Virus record (IMG/VR): IMGVR_UViG_2711768066_000009
Coordinates: 1-17,462 of that record
Source of the DNA: a virus
Lineage: Duplodnaviria; Heunggongvirae; Uroviricota; Caudoviricetes
Strand: one strand, 5' to 3'
DNA length: 17,462 bases
Under the pieces are notes generated by a model. It was not told where the DNA came from, did no database searches, and saw only the letters and a list, made by a program, of their open reading frames with translations. Positions 3,966 through 15,369 of the stretch are shown piece after piece. Within the stretch, counting starts at the first letter, position 1. Every line of letters begins with the position of its first letter. Made by a program: the position numbers and the translations under genes.

Positions 3966-4790
3966 TCAGGCGGTGAAAGTACCAATAAAGGTTTCTACTT
4001 TGCTGTCTTTGAATTTCTCAACAAGCAGATCACGAAATTCGTTAGCCATTTCTTCCTGCACCGCTTCCAGCTGAATAATGCGCAGAACCAGTACAGGACG
4101 ATCGCCAGTGATAATGCTGAGGCGTAATTTAAACGGACGTTCTTTCAGACCTTCAAACGGAACGCATTTAAATTCAAATGCCACTGGCATAATGTCTTTG
4201 GTCTTCGCTTCGACAGACTCCATCAGGGAGCGTTTGCCGCTGAAGTCATTGTCTTCAAAATCAGCGGTCTGGTTCGCTTCAATTGTGATTTTACGGATCG
4301 CCGCAGCCGCTTTGGTTGCCTGAATGGCGTCACCATTAGCATCAAAGCCCACAAGGTAGTCGGCCCAGTCTTCAATCCATTCTGCCAGTGACTTCTGGGA
4401 GTTACGCTCGCCATTAACAGACAACAGAGCAGAGAACGGTGCTGTCTTTTTCAGTTTGAGAGTGGCGGTGTTATCTGCGTGACCTGGTTCATCAATAGTA
4501 CCCAGGTTAAGCACACTGACGGCTCGCATATTATCGGCATCGATAAAGCAGCGGGTGCCTTCATCTGCAAGATCTTTAGAATAACGGGTAAAGTCATCGA
4601 TGCTGGCAGTGGAAAGTGAACCACGGAAACGGAAACGATTTAAATTAAATTTTTCCAGATCACGAATGCGGAAATTCTCAGGCAATGCCACAGCATCGGC
4701 ACCAATCTTACTGATAATTTCATTAACACCCTGAGCAGAAATAAGGGCATGGATTTGATTAATTGCGGTTGCGTCTAAGTACTGAGACAT
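3966..4790 (-). CDS. yfdQ: DUF2303-family prophage protein (YfdQ-like)
   Basis: 274-aa ORF, GAGGA RBS 6 nt upstream of ATG. Length and sequence resemble K-12 CPS-53 YfdQ as I recall; function unknown. Confidence 0.6.
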
Positions 4791-5883: not shown

Positions 5884-6558
5884 TTAGGCCTTTATTTTGT
5901 ATCTTCTTGGTTTTCCTGAGAAAATTACTGTACCAATTATAGAGCAATTACCGTTAATCTTAATGTAAGGCTCAGGCCAGTTTGGGTTTAATGCTTTGAG
6001 ATAACGCTGTGTTCCATCTTCTATCAATCGCTTGAAGGTGGTTTCGCCTGTATCGTGCATCAATGCAATAACGTCGTCACCGTGGCAGGCAGGGACTTCG
6101 GGATCAACAAAAATCATGTCTCCCGGGCGATACTCATCAATCATTGAATCACCAATCACCCGCAAGATATAAGTCATTTCGCCACAGGGTACAGGGCAGG
6201 GATAAGTTTCTGCTGTGCTCAAATCAACCTCAGAATAGCCAACTTCTTTCCATGCTCCGGCCTGTACCCATGATATGACAGGGACTAACGTTATTTGTTT
6301 GTTAGTGATTGAAACATCAGGTTTTTTTGTGATGTTCGTGGTCTGGTGTTCTTGATCAAGCCATCCGACAGGCAGGTCGAAACATTTTTCGATGTGCCGT
6401 GCCATGCTGTCACCGATATTTTTAGTAGCACCATCTCCCATAAACCTGCTGGTCTGGGTTGGCTCGCGATCAATCATGGTGGCAAAGGAAGAATTCCCGC
6501 CAACACCATCTCTCAGTTTTCTGGCGTTAGACCGCCGGATGTCATGGACTGTTTTCAT
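5884..6558 (-). CDS. cI: CI-like prophage repressor (N-terminal HTH, C-terminal S24 LexA-like peptidase domain)
   Basis: 224-aa ORF; C-terminal region (VIGDSMIDEYRPGDMIFVD...) matches the S24 autocleavage domain pattern (Ser in GDSM). Position divergent from cro; weak or absent SD, consistent with a leaderless transcript. Confidence 0.85.
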   Translation of the reverse strand: MKTVHDIRRSNARKLRDGVGGNSSFATMIDREPTQTSRFMGDGATKNIGDSMARHIEKCFDLPVGWLDQEHQTTNITKKPDVSITNKQITLVPVISWVQAGAWKEVGYSEVDLSTAETYPCPVPCGEMTYILRVIGDSMIDEYRPGDMIFVDPEVPACHGDDVIALMHDTGETTFKRLIEDGTQRYLKALNPNWPEPYIKINGNCSIIGTVIFSGKPRRYKIKA

Positions 6559-6648
6559 AAAGAAATTAAAACCTTTGTACCGATAAGGTACAAGTATCTT
6601 GAAGGTTCATATTAATCATGTAATATGTATATCGGAGGTACATATTGT
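6559..6648. promoter_or_regulatory. immunity-region divergent promoters and operators (OR/PR/PRM-like)
   Basis: 19-bp palindrome TTGTACC-GATAA-GGTACAA (6575-6593). Rightward promoter candidate TTGAAG (6599-6604), 16 nt, TAATAT (6621-6626). Imperfect second site GGTACATATTGTATG (6636-6650). Leftward -10 candidate TTTAAT directly upstream of the cI ATG. Confidence 0.55.
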
Positions 6649-6849
6649 ATGAAAGCGTATTGGGACTCTTTAACCAAAGAACAGCAGGGCGAGTTGGCCG
6701 GAAAAGTTGGCTCAACACCAGGCTACTTACGGCTGGTTTTCAATGGTTATAAAAAAGCCAGTTTTGTGCTGGCTAAAAAACTTGAGCAATGCACGTCAGG
6801 TGCAATTACGAAATCTGACTTAAGACCGGATATCTATCCGAAAGATTAA
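6649..6849 (+). CDS. cro: Cro-like HTH regulator (YdaS-like)
   Basis: Start at ATG 6649 with GGAGG upstream (MKAYWDSLTKEQ...); small HTH protein; C-terminal ITKSDLRPDIYP resembles YdaS/Cro-family proteins; divergent from cI. Confidence 0.7.
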   Translation: MKAYWDSLTKEQQGELAGKVGSTPGYLRLVFNGYKKASFVLAKKLEQCTSGAITKSDLRPDIYPKD

Positions 6850-6880
6850 CAGAACACCTTCAATTTTTAACCACAGAACG

Positions 6881-7444
6881 ATGAGGCGAACCGTGGGTAA
6901 GCATCACTGGAAAGTAGAAAAACAGCCTGAGTGGTACGTGAAAGCTGTCAGAAAAACTATCGCGGCGTTGCCGGGGGGTTACGCTGAAGCTGCTGAGTGG
7001 CTGGATGTAACAGAGAACGCTTTATTCAACCGCCTTCGTGCAGATGGCGATCAGATTTTCCCGCTGGGATGGGCAATGATTTTACAGCGCGCGGCTGGCA
7101 CTCACTACATTGCGGATGCTGTCGCACAGTCTGCTGGTGGGGTGTTTGTATCGCTTCCTGAAATTGAGGAAGTAGAGAACGCCGATATAAACCAGCGCCT
7201 GCTGGAAGTCATCGAACAGATCGGGAGTTACTCAAAGCAGATTCGTTCGGCAATCGAAGATGGGGTAGTGGAGCCACACGAGCAGACAGCAATTAATGAT
7301 GAGTTGTATCTGTCAATTTCGAAGCTCCAGGAGCATGCAGCACTGGTCTACAAAATCTTTTGCGCTCCAGAAAAGAGTGACGCCCGCGAGTGTGCAGCTC
7401 CGGGCGTCGTGGCGTTTTGTGTCTGTGGAGAAACTAACGCATGA
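6881..7444 (+). CDS. CII-like/YdaT-family regulatory protein
   Basis: 187-aa ORF immediately after cro in the rightward operon; start may instead be the in-frame GTG at 6893 (GAGG upstream). Family call is from position and general resemblance only. Confidence 0.5.
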   Translation: MRRTVGKHHWKVEKQPEWYVKAVRKTIAALPGGYAEAAEWLDVTENALFNRLRADGDQIFPLGWAMILQRAAGTHYIADAVAQSAGGVFVSLPEIEEVENADINQRLLEVIEQIGSYSKQIRSAIEDGVVEPHEQTAINDELYLSISKLQEHAALVYKIFCAPEKSDARECAAPGVVAFCVCGETNA

Positions 7445-8277
7445 ACAGTTTAACGGCAAATAACCGTTTGTCGCAACAGCTGGTGGTCAGTGTCGCTGAA
7501 CACCTGTTGTTACGGCATGAATGCAGATTACCAAATCACCTGGCTGTAAGTAACCACAGAGAACTTTACCTGACTGTGGGGGGCGAGTTGTGCAGGAACT
7601 TAACCGCTGGTTTCGTGACGGAAGAGGACTTTATGTTCATGTTATTCGTTGGGAGCCAGAAACACAGCGCGTTATCTATCTTCGCAAAGACTACCCGCAT
7701 GAGTGCTTTAGTCCTTTGTGGAAATTCAGGCGTGATTTTGTTGAGTGTGAAGGACCACCAGCACATTGATTCTGCCATTCCGGGACGTTACACTGTTCAG
7801 GCACCTTATAAAGCGGGTGTCGGGATTGGCGTCCTGGAATTCAATATAGAGCATAACCGCGCTCATGCGGTTTTTTCGTATCATGAGCATTGCTACGTCC
7901 AAATTATGGTGGGGCGTGCAGGGGCATCGCAAGATGCGCCGGGTTCTATGTTGACCGGTTACGCCAACCCTGTACGTCTCACCACCTCTGTGATTGGCGT
8001 CCCATGTGGTGAGTTCTTTGAATTCAACATAGGGGCTGTCACCATGACTACTCTCCCAACCCTCGCTCGTCTGAATGATGAAGACTTACATAAACTCAGT
8101 TATGTAACAACTGCACTACGTGCTCTGCGCAAGGTAACTCTTTCGGATCCGCAGGCGCATCAGGTTCTGGTAGAAACACTTCTTAACTTGCAGGCTGAAC
8201 GTATTCGTTTGGCGGATAAGGCTAATTTTCATATTCACCGTCTCCTGAATATCAGCGGAGGGCATCGTCATGCTTAA
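7441..8277 (+). CDS. hypothetical protein (278 aa), unknown function
   Basis: Sole long ORF in this interval; ATGA overlap with the upstream gene, and its stop overlaps the ATG of the next ORF; no recognisable motifs. Confidence 0.6.
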   Translation: MNSLTANNRLSQQLVVSVAEHLLLRHECRLPNHLAVSNHRELYLTVGGELCRNLTAGFVTEEDFMFMLFVGSQKHSALSIFAKTTRMSALVLCGNSGVILLSVKDHQHIDSAIPGRYTVQAPYKAGVGIGVLEFNIEHNRAHAVFSYHEHCYVQIMVGRAGASQDAPGSMLTGYANPVRLTTSVIGVPCGEFFEFNIGAVTMTTLPTLARLNDEDLHKLSYVTTALRALRKVTLSDPQAHQVLVETLLNLQAERIRLADKANFHIHRLLNISGGHRHA

Positions 8278-9415: not shown

Positions 9416-10069
9416 ATGAGTAATAAATATTGCCAGGCGCTGGTAGAACTGCGGAACAAACCAGCCCATGAACTGAAGGAAGTGGGCGATCAGTGGCGCA
9501 CGCCGGACAACATTTTCTGGGGAATTAACACTCTGTTTGGCCCGTTTGTTCTGGATCTGTTTACTGACGGTGATAACGCCAAATGTGCCGCGTATTACAC
9601 GGCGGAAGATAACGCGCTGGCGCATGACTGGTCAGAACGTCTTGCGGAGCTTAAAGGTGCTGCCTTTGGTAATCCCCCATACAGCCGCGCCAGTCAGCAT
9701 GAGGGGCAATACATCACCGGCATGCGTTACATCATGAAACATGCCAGTGCCATGCGTGATAAGGGCGGGCGCTATGTTTTCCTGATCAAAGCTGCCACCA
9801 GCGAAGTGTGGTGGCCGGAAGATGCGGACCATATTGCTTTTATTCGCGGGCGTATTGGTTTTGAACTGCCTGCCTGGTTTATCCCGAAGGATGAGAAGCA
9901 GGTGCCGACAGGCGCTTTCTTCGCTGGTGCTATTGCTGTTTTCGACAAGACCTGGAAGGGACCGGCAATCAGCTACATCGGGCGCGATGAACTTGAGGCA
10001 TGTGGTGAGGCCTTTCTGGCGCAGGTTCGCCAGCAGGCAGAAAAACTGGTCAGGGAGATGGCGGCATGA
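9416..10069 (+). CDS. phage Dam-like DNA N6-adenine methyltransferase
   Basis: 217-aa ORF with NPPY catalytic motif (FGNPPYSRA); size and layout typical of phage Dam-family methyltransferases; ATGA-coupled to downstream gene. Confidence 0.8.
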   Translation: MSNKYCQALVELRNKPAHELKEVGDQWRTPDNIFWGINTLFGPFVLDLFTDGDNAKCAAYYTAEDNALAHDWSERLAELKGAAFGNPPYSRASQHEGQYITGMRYIMKHASAMRDKGGRYVFLIKAATSEVWWPEDADHIAFIRGRIGFELPAWFIPKDEKQVPTGAFFAGAIAVFDKTWKGPAISYIGRDELEACGEAFLAQVRQQAEKLVREMAA

Positions 10070-12621: not shown

Positions 12622-12993
12622 ATGCGTGATATTCAAATGGTTCTTGAACGTTGGGGGGCATGGGTGGCAAATAATCACGAGGATGTGGAATGGTCATCTG
12701 TTGCTGCAGGTTTTAAGGGATTAATTCCTTCGAAAGTAAAATCCCGCCCGCAATGTAGCGATGACGATGGCCTGATCATTAGCTCTGCGATGACAGTTCT
12801 TAAGAAAAAGGAACCGTATCAATACGAATTACTGGAAATGTATTATGTGTATGGGGTTACATTACGGGCGTTGGGGGTAAAACTGGGGATATCACTTAAT
12901 CAGGTTGTTATCAGACTGCAGAAAGCTGAAGGGTTTATTGACGGTTGTCTGGCAATGTTGGGGGTATCTTTAGAAATTGATTGTTACATATAG
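12622..12993 (+). CDS. Q: Q-like late-gene antiterminator
   Basis: Start at ATG 12622 (GGAG upstream; MRDIQMVLERWGAWVANNHEDV...); resembles phage-21/82-type Q (QuuD-like) proteins as I recall; positioned just before the late region. Confidence 0.75.
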   Translation: MRDIQMVLERWGAWVANNHEDVEWSSVAAGFKGLIPSKVKSRPQCSDDDGLIISSAMTVLKKKEPYQYELLEMYYVYGVTLRALGVKLGISLNQVVIRLQKAEGFIDGCLAMLGVSLEIDCYI

Positions 12994-13030
12994 TAATAAA
13001 TTCAATCAAAGTAAATAATCATATTTTATT

Positions 13031-13067
13031 ATAACCTCCTGATGATACCTGTTCATCGGGAGGTTAT
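13031..13067 (+). promoter_or_regulatory. 15-bp stem-loop sequestering the ribosome-binding site of the downstream moron gene
   Basis: ATAACCTCCTGATGA (13031-13045) pairs with TCATCGGGAGGTTAT (13053-13067), one G-U pair, 7-nt loop; the 3' arm contains GGGAGG and ends 1 nt before the ATG at 13069. Confidence 0.5.
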
Positions 13068-13068
13068 T

Positions 13069-13686
13069 ATGGATAAAAATGTAGAGCATGTATTAGTTGA
13101 TGCAATTGAAAATAAGCAATCTTTAACAGTCGTTTACTTAGGAGGGAGCCAGCCCGGAACATTAAGGAATATTTCTCCGATTAGTATAAATGGGGATAAA
13201 TTGCGGGCAAGATGCCATAGTTCTGGAGCAGTAAAGGTTTTCAATCTTGGGAAAATACAGTTACCCAGTGACTCCTGCGCGGTATCTATGCACTATGGAG
13301 ATTTAGAAGTTAAAGCTTATGAGACGATGCAGAGCGTAAATGACAACTTTCATGCCCTTTATCCTGAAGGACGATGGGGTGTTGATTTTAATGAGCATCG
13401 CTTTGCTTTATTTGATTTTTTTAAAAACGGGAAACGAAAAAAAACGGCATTTATGGCAATTGAGTTCAGGGAAAGAGATGAAGAGAAAATAATAACAGGT
13501 GTAACAATTGATATTGGTATATCTGGAACAGTGATTTCTGAGAAGTCCCGAATCCCAAAAAGACGACCATGGGTAGTGGTTGGTCCCGAACACGGAGAAT
13601 ACAGTACTTATTCAACTTTGGACAAGGCTGCTACAGCGTTTTTTGAGAGGCTTTCGTTGATAGCATCCGGCCTGGAAGATAATTGA
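13069..13686 (+). CDS. hypothetical moron protein (205 aa), possible N-terminal WYL-like beta-barrel; function unknown
   Basis: Start at ATG 13069 behind GGGAGG; strongly AT-rich coding sequence unlike the flanking phage backbone; N-terminal segment SLTVVYLGGSQPGTLRNISPISINGDKLRARCHSSGAVKVFNLGKIQ loosely resembles a WYL-type domain (low confidence). Confidence 0.55.
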   Translation: MDKNVEHVLVDAIENKQSLTVVYLGGSQPGTLRNISPISINGDKLRARCHSSGAVKVFNLGKIQLPSDSCAVSMHYGDLEVKAYETMQSVNDNFHALYPEGRWGVDFNEHRFALFDFFKNGKRKKTAFMAIEFRERDEEKIITGVTIDIGISGTVISEKSRIPKRRPWVVVGPEHGEYSTYSTLDKAATAFFERLSLIASGLEDN

Positions 13687-13816
13687 TTTTATGTTTGGTA
13701 TTCAGAGTTCGCCGTGCTTAAGAAAGTCAAGATTCTAAAAATACTGAATGAGCTACTTGTGTTATAACAAAAATGCTATTAGTGTGTTAAGAGTGGTTAC
13801 TTCGCCACACAACTTA

Positions 13817-13842
13817 AACCCGCCACTGAGCGGGTTTTTTGT
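13817..13842 (+). terminator. rho-independent terminator downstream of the moron
   Basis: AACCCGC-CACTGA-GCGGGTT stem followed by TTTTTT. Confidence 0.7.
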
Positions 13843-13938
13843 ACCTGTAAACTTGGTGCAGTACAGTAAACACGCTGGTGGTCGTGAATACTGACTTTTT
13901 ATCTTGCTGGCTTTTTAGACAAGAGTTATTGGTATGTC

Positions 13939-14166
13939 ATGTTAACAAGAAGGGAAAAAGACATGCTAAAACAGCAAGATATGACAGAAACCGCCGCCGC
14001 AGTCCTTCATTTCTTACCTGCTGACAAGTGGGTAACGCCACGCATGATGACGAGAACTACCGGAGTAAGCGAAGCCCAGTGCCAGTTAATACTGACTCAG
14101 TTAGTTCTGGCGGGTCTGGCGAAGGATAACGGCGGGTACGGGAATAAATTCAGACGCTGCCAGTAA
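13939..14166 (+). CDS. small hypothetical protein, possible winged-HTH
   Basis: 75-aa ORF; segment VTPRMMTRTTGVSEAQCQLILTQLVLAGLA looks HTH-like; start uncertain (in-frame ATGs at 13939 and downstream). Confidence 0.4.
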   Translation: MLTRREKDMLKQQDMTETAAAVLHFLPADKWVTPRMMTRTTGVSEAQCQLILTQLVLAGLAKDNGGYGNKFRRCQ

Positions 14167-14316: not shown

Positions 14317-15369
14317 ATGAAAAATACTGTAAAAATAAACAGTGTTGATTTAATCAACGCTGATTGCCTGCATTTTATTCAGTCCCTGCCTGATAACTCC
14401 ATTGATCTGATTGTTACCGATCCGCCGTACTTCAAAGTGAAGCCCAACGGCTGGGACAATCAGTGGAAAGGGGACGAAGATTACCTGAAGTGGCTGGACC
14501 ACTGTCTGGCCCAGTTCTGGCGGGTACTGAAACCAGCCGGAAGCCTTTACCTGTTCTGTGGGCATCGCCTGGCATCTGATATTGAGATCATGATGCGTGA
14601 ACGTTTCAACGTGCTTAACCATATCATCTGGGCGAAGCCGTCCGGACGTTGGAATGGGTGTAATAAAGAAAGTCTGCGTGCATATTTTCCTGCCACAGAG
14701 CGCGTTCTGTTTGCTGAACATTACCAGGGGCCATATCGCGGCAAAAGTGACGGCTATGCGGCAAAAGAAAGGGAACTCAAACAGCACATAATGGCACCGC
14801 TGATATCGTATTTCAGGGATGCTCGTGCCGAACTGGGTATAACGGCAAAACAAATTGCCGAAGCCACAGGTAAGAAAAATATGGTTTCCCACTGGTTTGG
14901 TGCCAGTCAGTGGCAGTTGCCGAATGAGGCTGACTATCGGAAGTTACAGGCACTGTTTTCCCGTATAGCGGCAGAGAAGTTTCAGGAACAACAACTGGAA
15001 CAACCACACCACCAGCTGGTGGCATCTTATGATTCACTGAATCGTAAATATTCTGAATTGCTGGATGAGTTTAAATCTCTCCGGCGCTATTTCTCCGTAT
15101 CAGTCTCCGTGCCTTATACCGATGTCTGGATGCATAAACCCGTTCAGTTCTACCCGGGGAAACATCCGTGTGAGAAACCGGCGGATATGCTCAGGCAAAT
15201 AATCAATGCCAGTAGTCGACCAGGTGATCTGGTTGCTGATTTTTTTATGGGATCCGGTTCCACAATAAAAGCAGCAATGGCGCTGGGGCGTCGGGCCTTA
15301 GGTGTTGAGCTTGAGTCAGAGCGGTTTAATCAGACAGTGAAAGAGATAAACGAGCTGGTGGGGAAATAA
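14317..15369 (+). CDS. DNA methyltransferase, beta-class amino-MTase (N6-adenine or N4-cytosine)
   Basis: 350 aa; DPPY motif near the N-terminus (LIVTDPPYF) and AdoMet-binding motif near the C-terminus ([13 protein letters not shown]); this motif order is typical of beta-class MTases. No adjacent restriction endonuclease gene. Confidence 0.8.

Follow-up and report, generated by a model that had tools for sequence, protein, structure and literature searches.

A stand-alone WYL-domain protein encoded between Q and the late promoter of a lambdoid Escherichia coli prophage, behind a hairpin that pairs its Shine-Dalgarno sequence

What does a small gene do that lies between the antiterminator gene Q and the late promoter of a lambdoid prophage, and how could it be expressed at this place? 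The gene analysed here, referred to as the WYL gene, is found in an E. coli prophage of the phage-21/DLP12 type, where it separates Q from the late promoter cassette (pR'-qut-tR'). The window, which is the whole stretch of DNA that was analysed, comprises 17,462 nucleotides of this prophage (Table 1). The 205-aa ORF is a real gene: the dN/dS ratio between it and a 72%-identical allele is 0.23, and its product belongs to a family of stand-alone proteins that forms 954 clusters at 50% identity. The start codon of the 205-aa ORF is the one used by RefSeq and the homologues. A second in-frame ATG at 13042 is located inside a hairpin and is not preceded by a Shine-Dalgarno (SD) sequence.

The preliminary description noted that the gene is far more AT-rich than its surroundings, and AT-rich it is. 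The GC content of the ORF is 0.396 (GC3 0.320), that of the whole window is 0.48, and that of the leader (12994-13068) is 0.27. Because the GC content of Q is low as well (0.424), the AT-rich segment already begins within Q. The 3' half of Q and the WYL gene together belong to one variable AT-rich segment, and recombination breakpoints are found inside Q at about 12668 and 12780. Closely related prophages do not contain the WYL gene but carry different cargo at the same place. This other cargo is encoded on the opposite strand, whereas the WYL gene follows Q in sense orientation.

Table 1. Features of the region from Q to the late terminator (window positions)
Feature	Position	Strand	Remarks
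Q antiterminator gene (PF06530, Q21-like)	12622..12993	+	Pfam E 5e-48; PDB Q21 6P18/6JNX E 2.6e-10; RefSeq start mapped from locus L001
AT-rich leader, Q stop codon to hairpin	12994..13030	+	GC about 0.27; + strand without a convincing sigma-70 promoter
RNA hairpin	13031..13067	+	5' arm 13031-13045 (ATAACCTCCTGATGA); loop 13046-13052; 3' arm 13053-13067 (TCATCGGGAGGTTAT)
Shine-Dalgarno GGGAGG	13058..13063	+	5 nt before the ATG; all paired; unpaired probability <= 0.002
205-aa ORF plus stop, ATG at 13069	13069..13686	+	RefSeq WP_000360285.1, 'hypothetical protein' or, in newer annotation, 'WYL domain-containing protein'; phrog_8498 E 3e-126
N-terminal helix and WYL (Sm-like) beta-barrel, residues 1-66	13069..13266	+	Y23, G26, G30, R33, A47, K56 invariant in 62 family members
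Linker, residues 67-84, variable, low-confidence	13267..13320	+	pLDDT <50 for residues 69-81; dN/dS 1.25
C-terminal alpha-beta5-alpha domain (predicted), residues 85-205, no assignable family	13321..13683	+	Conserved W103, K119-N120-G121, R166-P167-W168, A187, F191; variable insert at about residues 134-167
3' spacer	13687..13756	+	Terminator-like structure absent; fold z -0.14
pR'-like late promoter	13757..13785	+	-35 TTGTGT 13757-13762, 17-nt spacer, -10 TAGTGT 13780-13785; position homologous to phi24B 'pR; putative late promoter'
Conserved initial transcribed region	13786..13815	+	Counterpart of phi24B 'qUT' at about 13799-13806
Intrinsic terminator, tR'-type	13816..13840	+	AAACCCGC / CACTGA / GCGGGTTT + T-run; -13.8 kcal/mol, z -3.4

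The late cassette was identified through the annotation of phage phi24B and through homology to H-19B. The region 13757-13840 is homologous to the annotated pR'-qut-terminator cassette of phi24B and is also present in H-19B, and positions 13785-13845 are 80-82% identical to the late promoter/qut/terminator block of phi24B. The pR'-like promoter is located outside the cargo gene and co-varies with the C-terminal type of Q in eight loci, and GTTAAGAGTGGTTACTTCGCCACACA in the initial transcribed region is invariant across six prophages with differing cargo. The DNA-binding half of Q and its cognate promoter region recombine as one unit, with the WYL cargo in between. The terminator that had been assigned to the gene itself is present, 130 nt past the stop codon. 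However, it belongs to the conserved tR' late cassette: it is common to 379 phage records and annotated as terminator in phi24B, and the conserved block is also found in phages that do not contain the WYL gene. In the allele-2 loci the tR' stem has an altered sequence with preserved pairing. Because the terminator is the conserved late tR', the WYL gene is located upstream of pR' and thus outside the Stx cargo slot, into which the preliminary description had placed it. In prophages carrying both features or the same block, stx is found far downstream of the late cassette. In the O113:H21 allele-2 prophage both are encoded: the WYL gene precedes the cassette, and stx2 comes after it, beyond a methylase gene and tRNAs.

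The same terminator bears on the question whether the gene is a moron, as had been proposed. It shares with morons in the strict sense that it is an accessory gene missing in close relatives, that its base composition deviates, and that the slot holds other cargo in related prophages. In contrast to a strict moron it is co-inherited with Q, its terminator is that of the late cassette, and an own promoter was not detected. A consensus scan for + strand promoters between Q and the ATG found none, although such a scan cannot exclude a weak one, and inspection by hand upstream of the ORF revealed only weak -10-like AT-rich hexamers and no -35. With no promoter of its own and a borrowed terminator, the gene does not fall under the definition of a moron as a unit of promoter and terminator. 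A horizontal acquisition had been concluded from the base composition; a recent one is doubtful. In E. coli the gene is present in 74 of 5426 complete genomes in the form of two alleles, always directly after one type of Q, and between the alleles the dS values of Q and the WYL gene are alike (0.80 and 0.81). The equal dS argues for a long joint history of the two genes.

The suggestion of a WYL-like N-terminus has been strengthened by the comparison of profiles. The N-terminus is, by its sequence, a WYL domain, as is indicated by Pfam, PADLOC, and PDB-profile matches alike. Residues 1-66 comprise a helix followed by a predicted Sm-like five-stranded beta-barrel, which is the WYL architecture. 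The match of the 205-aa protein to PF13280 covers profile positions 5-66 of 70 and, at 16.5 bits (E 0.0085), is below the gathering cut-off of 21.8. PF13280 is matched independently by 30 of the 62 family members at E <= 0.05 (best 1.2e-5), one of which reaches 22.4 bits. In the alignment to DriD (YEGGSTPGRTRE vs YLGGSQPGTLRN) Y23, S27, and R33 are placed on Y168, S172, and R178, residues that contact ssDNA phosphates and whose mutation abolishes binding (PMC9186387). Y23, R33, and K56 are invariant in the family and S27 is conserved in 92% of the members. DriD R176 is not kept (T31 in the 205-aa protein), and we infer, although not from the alignment, that K56 is equivalent to DriD K202/R204. 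The eponymous W-Y-L tripeptide is missing, as strand 3 reads K-L-R-A-R-C with the family consensus V-R-A-R-C. CapW and BrxR likewise deviate from W-Y-L and have RWHVR instead (PMC11662680), and the tripeptide is therefore not essential. The sole conserved cysteine, C49, is also part of the WYL barrel. The domain thus retains the residues for holding backbone phosphates by which DriD and CapW hold ssDNA. Besides ssDNA, RNA or c-di-GMP are alternative ligands of WYL domains.

For the rest of the protein no family could be assigned, as had been stated before. The search of the viral structure library (BFVD) with the C-terminal domain gave nothing at E <= 0.001, and none of DriD, CapW, BrxR, and PafBC was recovered in the searches with this domain. 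When the entire 205-aa protein was searched, there was no match in NCBIfam, PADLOC returned generic WYL models and no system model beyond those, and the PHROGs matches were to families of unknown function. Conserved D, E, H, or S residues are absent from the C-terminal domain of the 62-member family, which is why the domain is probably non-enzymatic. K, N, R, and W make up its conserved polar residues, and the domain has a conserved basic/aromatic patch (K119-N-G, R166-P-W168). Thus described, it seems to be a new module that is apparently non-catalytic. By inspection, the 205-aa protein has neither a signal peptide nor a membrane segment. A virulence factor, as had also been considered, was rejected for this reason and because there is no supporting context. 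The product is best read as a small cytoplasmic, non-enzymatic protein.

The genomic contexts of the family were looked at for about 20 of the 954 cluster representatives, and a profile scan of genome contigs with a five-sequence family alignment yielded seven loci. Homologues are often found near integrases, in immunity regions, or in defence islands. In the loci L079 and L080 the homologue directly follows a CI-like repressor; the CI-type HTH repressor of L080 has no recognisable S24 peptidase domain, and the related L079 has the same layout. In phage PY3 the homologue is encoded between the int and repressor genes, and in L019 it lies in their vicinity; HTH_3 or LexA-like repressors adjoin it in L019, PY3, and L011. 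In other loci it follows GmrSD_N plus HEPN (L021) or is found near Abi_C, RloB/AAA_21, and TA genes (L009) or near SIR2_2 (L005). Some homologues are located among housekeeping genes, and a few family members have membrane anchors. An all-against-all comparison of the neighbours in 17 loci revealed no shared neighbour gene or family. No paper naming the accessions of the WYL protein, its PHROG, or the conserved block, or describing a phage HTH-less WYL protein, was found in the literature searched.

The description of a 15-bp stem that buries the GGGAGG motif and stops 1 nt short of the ATG was borne out. The stem consists of 15 pairs including one G.U, and only the single base T13068 separates it from the start codon. 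The hairpin alone has a folding energy of -22.8 kcal/mol. The segment from -50 to +5 has a z-score of -6.2, with an equally good fold in none of 200 shuffles, and a 117-nt segment has one of -4.2. In a 250-nt context the stem pairs have probabilities of 0.90-1.00 and no alternative fold releasing the SD sequence was found. The accessibility of the ribosome-binding site (0.17) is the lowest among the 18 gene starts in the window, the others ranging from 0.21 to 0.52. The hairpin is present in both E. coli alleles despite about 22% nucleotide divergence and is retained in 47 of 48 IMG/VR copies; distant homologues do not have such a hairpin. In the five stem haplotypes the changes are one-sided, three of them keeping the pairing (G.U or U-A) and two resulting in a mismatch. 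Because no double compensatory changes are found among these haplotypes, the evidence from covariation is weak. Rfam gave sub-threshold matches at chance level only. A terminator was rejected as identity of the hairpin, because there is no T-run on either strand.

Taken together, we tentatively favour, at somewhat less than an even chance for the model as a whole, that this conserved accessory gene encodes a non-enzymatic binder of single-stranded nucleic acid that is produced at low level by read-through of the early operon. The 205-aa protein would bind single-stranded nucleic acid, most likely ssDNA, and the C-terminal domain would widen the binding surface or bind a partner protein. The protein might thereby modulate ssDNA-dependent events in prophage induction and replication, for instance what becomes of ssDNA intermediates or the alarm signals that reach RecA or the WYL repressors of the host. 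The WYL gene would be transcribed at the end of the early-right operon via read-through from Q, with the transcripts ending at tR', and the hairpin, by pairing the whole SD sequence, would keep translation low. Having neither HTH nor WCX, the protein cannot act alone as a WYL transcription factor. The parts of the model that have direct support are the gene, the identity of the domain, the conserved ligand-site residues, the position relative to pR' and tR', and the stability and retention of the hairpin. However, the homologues in immunity and integration modules of other temperate phages suggest, by analogy, expression in the lysogen rather than in lytic growth, which counts against the model.

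The hairpin might mainly have a purpose other than gating translation. It could be an RNase III site, a 3' barrier for the Q mRNA, or a DNA element, and indeed the helix grows to about 22-26 bp if flanking A-U pairs are included, starts 38 nt past the Q stop codon, and overlaps with its 5' arm and loop a minus-strand promoter (TGAACA-16-TATAAT, 10/12 matches). It is hard to reconcile with such purposes that the 3' arm coincides exactly with the SD region up to 1 nt short of the ATG, that the natural variants pair via G.U wobbles, which are workable only in + strand RNA, that a T-run is missing on both strands, and that the minus-strand promoter has decayed in allele 2 (TGAACG...TACTGT). We regard these other purposes as distinctly unlikely. 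A defence or abortive-infection role, which the preliminary description had raised, is possible, although the specific version of a single-gene defence or superinfection exclusion in the lysogen seems unlikely to us. The WYL domain would then sense ssDNA or RNA of the invader, and the C-terminal domain would block stoichiometrically or trigger abortive infection. WYL domains are frequent in defence systems, as reflected in the PADLOC match, and the cargo and defence settings of the homologues (L021, L009, L005, L079/L080, PY3) and the membrane anchors in a few of them would fit. However, the C-terminal domain has no effector-like fold or conserved catalytic residues, PADLOC does not go past the generic WYL models, and part of the homologues sit among housekeeping genes. 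In addition, the E. coli gene follows Q in sense, its SD is occluded, and no promoter was detected for it, while the other cargo of the slot is antisense.

Two further explanations make direct use of the ssDNA site. As a counter-defence decoy, the HTH-less WYL protein would, at induction, soak up the ssDNA that releases CapW and BrxR or activates RecA, so that host defences or the SOS response stay quiet. Such a response to induction exists: induction of a lambda prophage triggers CapW-driven CBASS expression, which reduces the phage yield about 100-fold (PMC11662680). The kept ssDNA-contact residues, the absent DNA-binding output domain, and the position in the lytic early-right operon also speak for a decoy. 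However, a sponge requires abundance and the RBS is strongly occluded, many homologues are found in non-phage or lysogeny-module contexts, and a phage WYL decoy is not described in the literature searched. We consider the decoy improbable. The protein could as well be an ssDNA-activated antirepressor or co-factor in the lysis-lysogeny decision that together with a separately encoded HTH protein constitutes a split WYL regulator. This would be in agreement with the homologue directly downstream of the S24-less CI-type repressor in L080 and likewise in L079, with the repressors adjacent in L019, PY3, and L011, and with the strict tie of the E. coli gene to one type of Q at equal dS. Against this stand the missing conserved neighbour family over the 17 loci and the repressor of the E. 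coli prophage, which is of the S24 LexA-type and encoded about 6.5 kb from the WYL gene, and we consider a co-regulator very unlikely. The chance is similarly small for the broader proposal that the phage HTH-less WYL protein is either an ssDNA-alarm sponge that blinds CapW-, BrxR-, and RecA-linked immunity or an ssDNA-activated antirepressor giving SOS-independent induction.

WYL domains are already known, mainly as the module that senses ssDNA in one-component regulators of the responses to DNA damage and to phages. In the family described here the sensing pocket is kept and every output domain is replaced by a new, apparently non-catalytic module, and the family recurs in immunity/integration regions of temperate phages and in defence islands. 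The role of such an output-less sensor, be it sponge, adaptor, exclusion factor, or induction co-factor, would extend the theme of the ssDNA alarm in phage-host conflict. If the sponge or antirepressor reading were true, it would add a new class of phage counter-signalling, whose target is a nucleic-acid alarm and not a cyclic nucleotide. The lambdoid prophages of the phage-21/DLP12 type offer two separate places for cargo downstream of Q, the first ahead of pR' and the second beyond tR'. Their expression logic is opposite, and in annotation the two should be kept apart.

Compared with known systems, the protein is closest in its N-terminus to the wHTH-WYL-WCX factors DriD, CapW, BrxR, and PafBC, with which it shares phage and defence contexts and whose DriD residues are matched by its Y..GGS.PG..R motif. 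In contrast to these factors it has neither a WCX dimerisation domain nor an N-terminal HTH; its WYL helix already begins at residue 3, and matches to HTH families were not obtained. With both domains absent, there is no DNA-operator output and no role as one-component regulator. Among WYL proteins that are not regulators, the Cas13d accessory protein WYL1 (PDB 6OAW) has an N-terminal RHH and is CRISPR-linked, whereas the 205-aa protein is stand-alone, and in Thermotoga elfii PIF1 the WYL module is fused to a helicase. The 205-aa protein differs from both by its unrelated C-terminal domain and by the absence of a conserved partner gene. Leader hairpins that sequester the SD sequence limit translation initiation in RNA thermometers and in structured phage leaders such as those of lambda cIII and N. 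The hairpin of the E. coli prophage resembles them in that the complete SD is paired within a stem immediately 5' of the start codon; it differs from RNA thermometers by its far higher stability and by the lack of an alternative fold, a ligand, or an Rfam family among the results. The late cassette has its counterparts in H-19B and phi24B, which encode a Q of the same family (PF06530) and a homologous pR'-qut-tR'. In these phages, however, pR' follows immediately on the Q stop codon and the toxins are encoded downstream of tR', whereas in the E. coli prophage Q is parted from pR' by a 0.76-kb segment with the WYL gene.

The window stems from a lambdoid E. coli prophage of the phage-21/DLP12 type, of which it covers the early-right and lysis region. 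Of 5426 complete E. coli genomes, 51 contain its stretch from Q to the methylase, with an identity of at least 99.6% among the 20 records listed. As proposed in the preliminary description, Q is directly followed by an AT-rich ORF of 205 codons (the WYL gene), whose GC content is 0.396 (GC3 0.320) against 0.48 for the whole window. Because the GC content of Q is also low (0.424), the AT-rich tract already starts within Q. Another 22 E. coli genomes have a second version, allele 2, at the same position and behind the same Q type; it shares 72% amino-acid and 78% nucleotide identity with the window's allele 1. Both alleles together occur in 74 of 5426. Between the alleles, dN/dS is 0.23 overall, 0.13 in the WYL domain, 0.23 in the C-terminal domain, and 1.25 in the linker. 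The dS values of the WYL gene (0.81) and Q (0.80) are equal, and the two were therefore inherited jointly. Judged from its sequence, the WYL gene is real and conserved.

Features of the prophage region in window order
Feature	Position	Details
LexA-like S24 repressor	5884-6558	- strand
Replication and nin-type genes		after the repressor
RusA, KilA-N, DUF968		between replication/nin-type genes and Q
Q antiterminator	12622-12993	PF06530; 2.6e-10 to solved Q21 protein
Hairpin arms	13031-13045 and 13053-13067	7-nt loop; 15 pairs, one G.U
Shine-Dalgarno (SD) GGGAGG	13058-13063	entirely within 3' arm; one base between stem and ATG
WYL gene	13069-13686	+ strand; after Q
pR' -35 TTGTGT	13757-13762	mapped from phi24B/H-19B features
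pR' -10 TAGTGT	13780-13785	mapped from phi24B/H-19B features
qut counterpart	about 13799-13806	mapped from phi24B/H-19B features
Terminator tR'	13816-13840	mapped from phi24B/H-19B features
75-aa ORF	13939-14166	after WYL gene
N6/N4 DNA methylase	14317-15369	after 75-aa ORF
P21-type holin, lysozyme, Rz		lysis genes; end of listed order

The 75-aa ORF is the first gene after tR'; it is conserved (phrog_331), has weak winged-HTH/MarR-like matches, and one genome annotation names it a TrmB-family regulator. The 350-residue methylase matches a PADLOC type II MTase model (E 1e-152), and with another adenine methylase at 9416-10069 the prophage therefore carries two orphan methylases. The leftmost genes of the window are an ORF with a SocA/Panacea antitoxin domain (1-573, E 2e-19) and a 139-aa ORF without family (570-989, GC 0.386, GC3 0.314), which share 4 nt; by sequence, the two look like a PanA-type toxin-antitoxin pair.

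The WYL-like N-terminus suggested earlier is substantiated by several comparisons. The window protein matches Pfam WYL below threshold (E 0.0085), the PADLOC WYL models match the N-terminal domain, 30 of 62 family members yield WYL matches when scanned singly, and profiles match the solved WYL domain of DriD, a wHTH-WYL-WCX transcription factor (E 0.003-0.012). In the AlphaFold model (pLDDT 74 overall) residues 1-60 reach 77-88. Aligning YLGGSQPGTLRN of the window protein with YEGGSTPGRTRE of DriD equates Y23, S27, and R33 with Y168, S172, and R178, which in DriD contact ssDNA phosphates and are required for binding (PMC9186387). All 62 members keep Y23, G26, G30, R33, A47, and K56. Since the WYL domain begins at residue 3, it leaves no space for an HTH in front. 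For the C-terminal domain (residues 85-205), a separate model built from 73 sequences (pLDDT 80, pTM 0.71) predicts an alpha-beta5-alpha sandwich that contains a variable insert, and BFVD gave no significant match to it. Its conserved residues are W103, K119-N120-G121, K125, R166-P167-W168, A187, and F191; within this domain the 62-member alignment shows no conserved Asp, Glu, His, or Ser, a pattern that speaks for a binding module and against an enzyme. It is reasonably supported that the WYL protein is a small, non-enzymatic binder of single-stranded nucleic acids, which would use a DriD-like WYL pocket without transcription-factor output.

At E <= 1e-3 an exhaustive profile search retrieved 954 cluster representatives, of which 191 reach E <= 1e-30. 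With few exceptions the retrieved proteins stand alone and have 190-210 residues. Rare extras are membrane anchors at either terminus, a double zinc ribbon, a helix-hairpin-helix, and C-terminal extensions without known type. Such anchors, zinc ribbons, or helix-hairpin-helix domains are fused to the members P0143, P0127, P0144, P0232, P0090, and P0235, and the relative locus L006 encodes a BRCT-like domain in a neighbouring gene (6636-7556); these sequences hint at membrane-tethered and DNA-repair-type variants. The architecture is new within the known WYL superfamily. Our literature search found no paper on the family or on any phage HTH-less WYL protein, and some copies are already named in databases as "WYL domain-containing protein". 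The original observation is confirmed and its interpretation partly supported.

The SD-burying stem of 15 bp, described as ending 1 nt before the ATG, was recovered both in the sequence and by folding. The hairpin alone has -22.8 kcal/mol; the segment from -50 to +5 has a z of -6.2 (as stable in 0 of 200 shuffles) and a 117-nt segment a z of -4.2. In a 250-nt context the pair probability is 0.90-1.00 throughout the stem, the SD has a probability of at most 0.002 of being unpaired, and this ribosome-binding site is the least accessible of the 18 in the window. The hairpin is confined to the E. coli lineage (0 of 7 distant homologues checked) and had no family match in Rfam. Allele 2 keeps it (-16.5 kcal/mol), with three one-sided substitutions that retain pairing and one that gives a mismatch. 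Of 48 IMG/VR copies surveyed, five have the window's hairpin and six are allele 2, while in 33 a C-to-T substitution replaces a G-C pair by G.U (-20.0 kcal/mol) and three have a stem mismatch that weakens the SD as well. Since G.U pairs function only in plus-strand RNA, a role at the RNA level is favoured; the covariation evidence is weak because a double compensatory change is absent among the variants. In one copy, L047 (IMGVR_UViG_2563366940_000006), where the gene starts at 4001, the 5' arm directly before the start is missing; unrelated sequence resembling a putative insertion-sequence end replaces it from the loop outwards, which would amount to a natural hairpin-loss variant. The minus strand of the hairpin region (13028-13055) contains a near-consensus sigma-70 promoter (-35 TGAACA, 16-nt spacer, perfect -10 TATAAT; 10/12 matches), directed leftwards, towards the 3' end of Q and antisense to it; this promoter recalls lambda paQ and is weaker in allele 2 (TGAACG ... 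TACTGT).

A plus-strand sigma-70-like promoter was not found between Q and the ATG, and the 70 nt 3' of the WYL stop codon are unstructured (z -0.14). In the simplest reading, the gene would be transcribed by read-through from the early-right operon in lytic growth, the transcripts would end at tR', and the hairpin would keep translation low. We prefer the version in which the protein would be a low-abundance ssDNA binder or adaptor during induction. A rival explanation is an exclusion or abortive-infection factor expressed in the lysogen; defence-island neighbours are found in L021 (GmrSD_N and HEPN), L009 (Abi_C, RloB/AAA_21, and TA genes), and L005 (SIR2_2). A few homologue loci have plain chromosomal surroundings. 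Integrases or recombinases are at most two genes away in L005, L006, L009, phage PY3, and L019. The protein could also be one half of a split co-regulator with a neighbouring HTH protein: HTH or LexA-like repressors are near the homologue in L011, L019, and PY3, and in two related viral contigs it directly follows the same short upstream ORF (a CI-type HTH in L080). Among about 20 non-E. coli loci compared no conserved neighbour gene was found. Alternatively, it might be an ssDNA-signal decoy against CapW/BrxR-type sensing, in favour of which CapW responds to lambda induction (PMC11662680). Two contigs of Nitrincola sp. A-D6 (L025 and L026) each carry a homologue copy with identical upstream neighbours; both match only over residues 4-142, close to contig ends, and may stem from a mobile element present in repeat copies or from duplication in the assembly.

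Recombination has its breakpoints within Q, at about 12668 or 12780, and shortly upstream of the -10, at about 13768-13785. Comparing window positions 12668-13785 with L002-L004, L012-L014, L016, and L017, the C-terminal DNA-binding half of Q co-varies with the -35/spacer region of pR' (four Q types, four promoter variants, eight loci). Thus, a co-adapted pair encloses the cargo, and any cargo in between is inherited with matched Q and promoter. From the general organisation of Q cassettes (bioRxiv 10.1101/651190) we infer that the promoter-side variable region may contain the Q-binding element. The palindrome TTGTGTTATAACAAAA (13757-13772) overlaps the -35 and is kept in allele-2 loci with the same Q type; it may serve as an operator or bind Q.

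The terminator-like hairpin and T-run attributed to the gene do exist but are not its own. The region 13786-13840 is nearly invariant in the prophages UTI89, EC96, PhiR40_1, Stx2a_1447, and SfIV, which lack the WYL gene, and 379 phage records match a 61-nt query (13785-13845). The homologous stretch of phi24B, directly after Q, carries annotations for a putative late promoter, a qut site, and a rho-independent terminator, and H-19B has the same arrangement. This homology identifies the terminator as tR' and places the WYL gene between Q and pR'. On the minus strand, Rfam yields a match below threshold to the sRNA STnc130 of enterobacteria (13808-13944; 30 bits, where the gathering score is 55; E 0.05; spanning the full model length). 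It overlaps tR' and the sequence beyond, and may reflect a small RNA seen at the equivalent site of Salmonella prophages. The gap between Q and pR' is absent from H-19B and phi24B, whereas in other prophages it is filled by unrelated genes on the opposite strand, unlike the sense-strand WYL gene. Two such loci, L002 (UTI89, about 1885-1965) and L004, have a GGGGAG...CTCCCC hairpin followed by TTTTAT directly after the Q stop, where the window has its SD hairpin; this looks like a terminator for Q and the convergent cargo gene. The supposed Stx cargo slot does not hold: in Stx2a_1447, stx2 comes only after the late cassette, a 65-aa ORF, a methylase, and three tRNAs, and the O113:H21 prophage carries allele 2 of the WYL gene and has its stx2 beyond the cassette, the 65-aa ORF, the methylase, and the three tRNAs.
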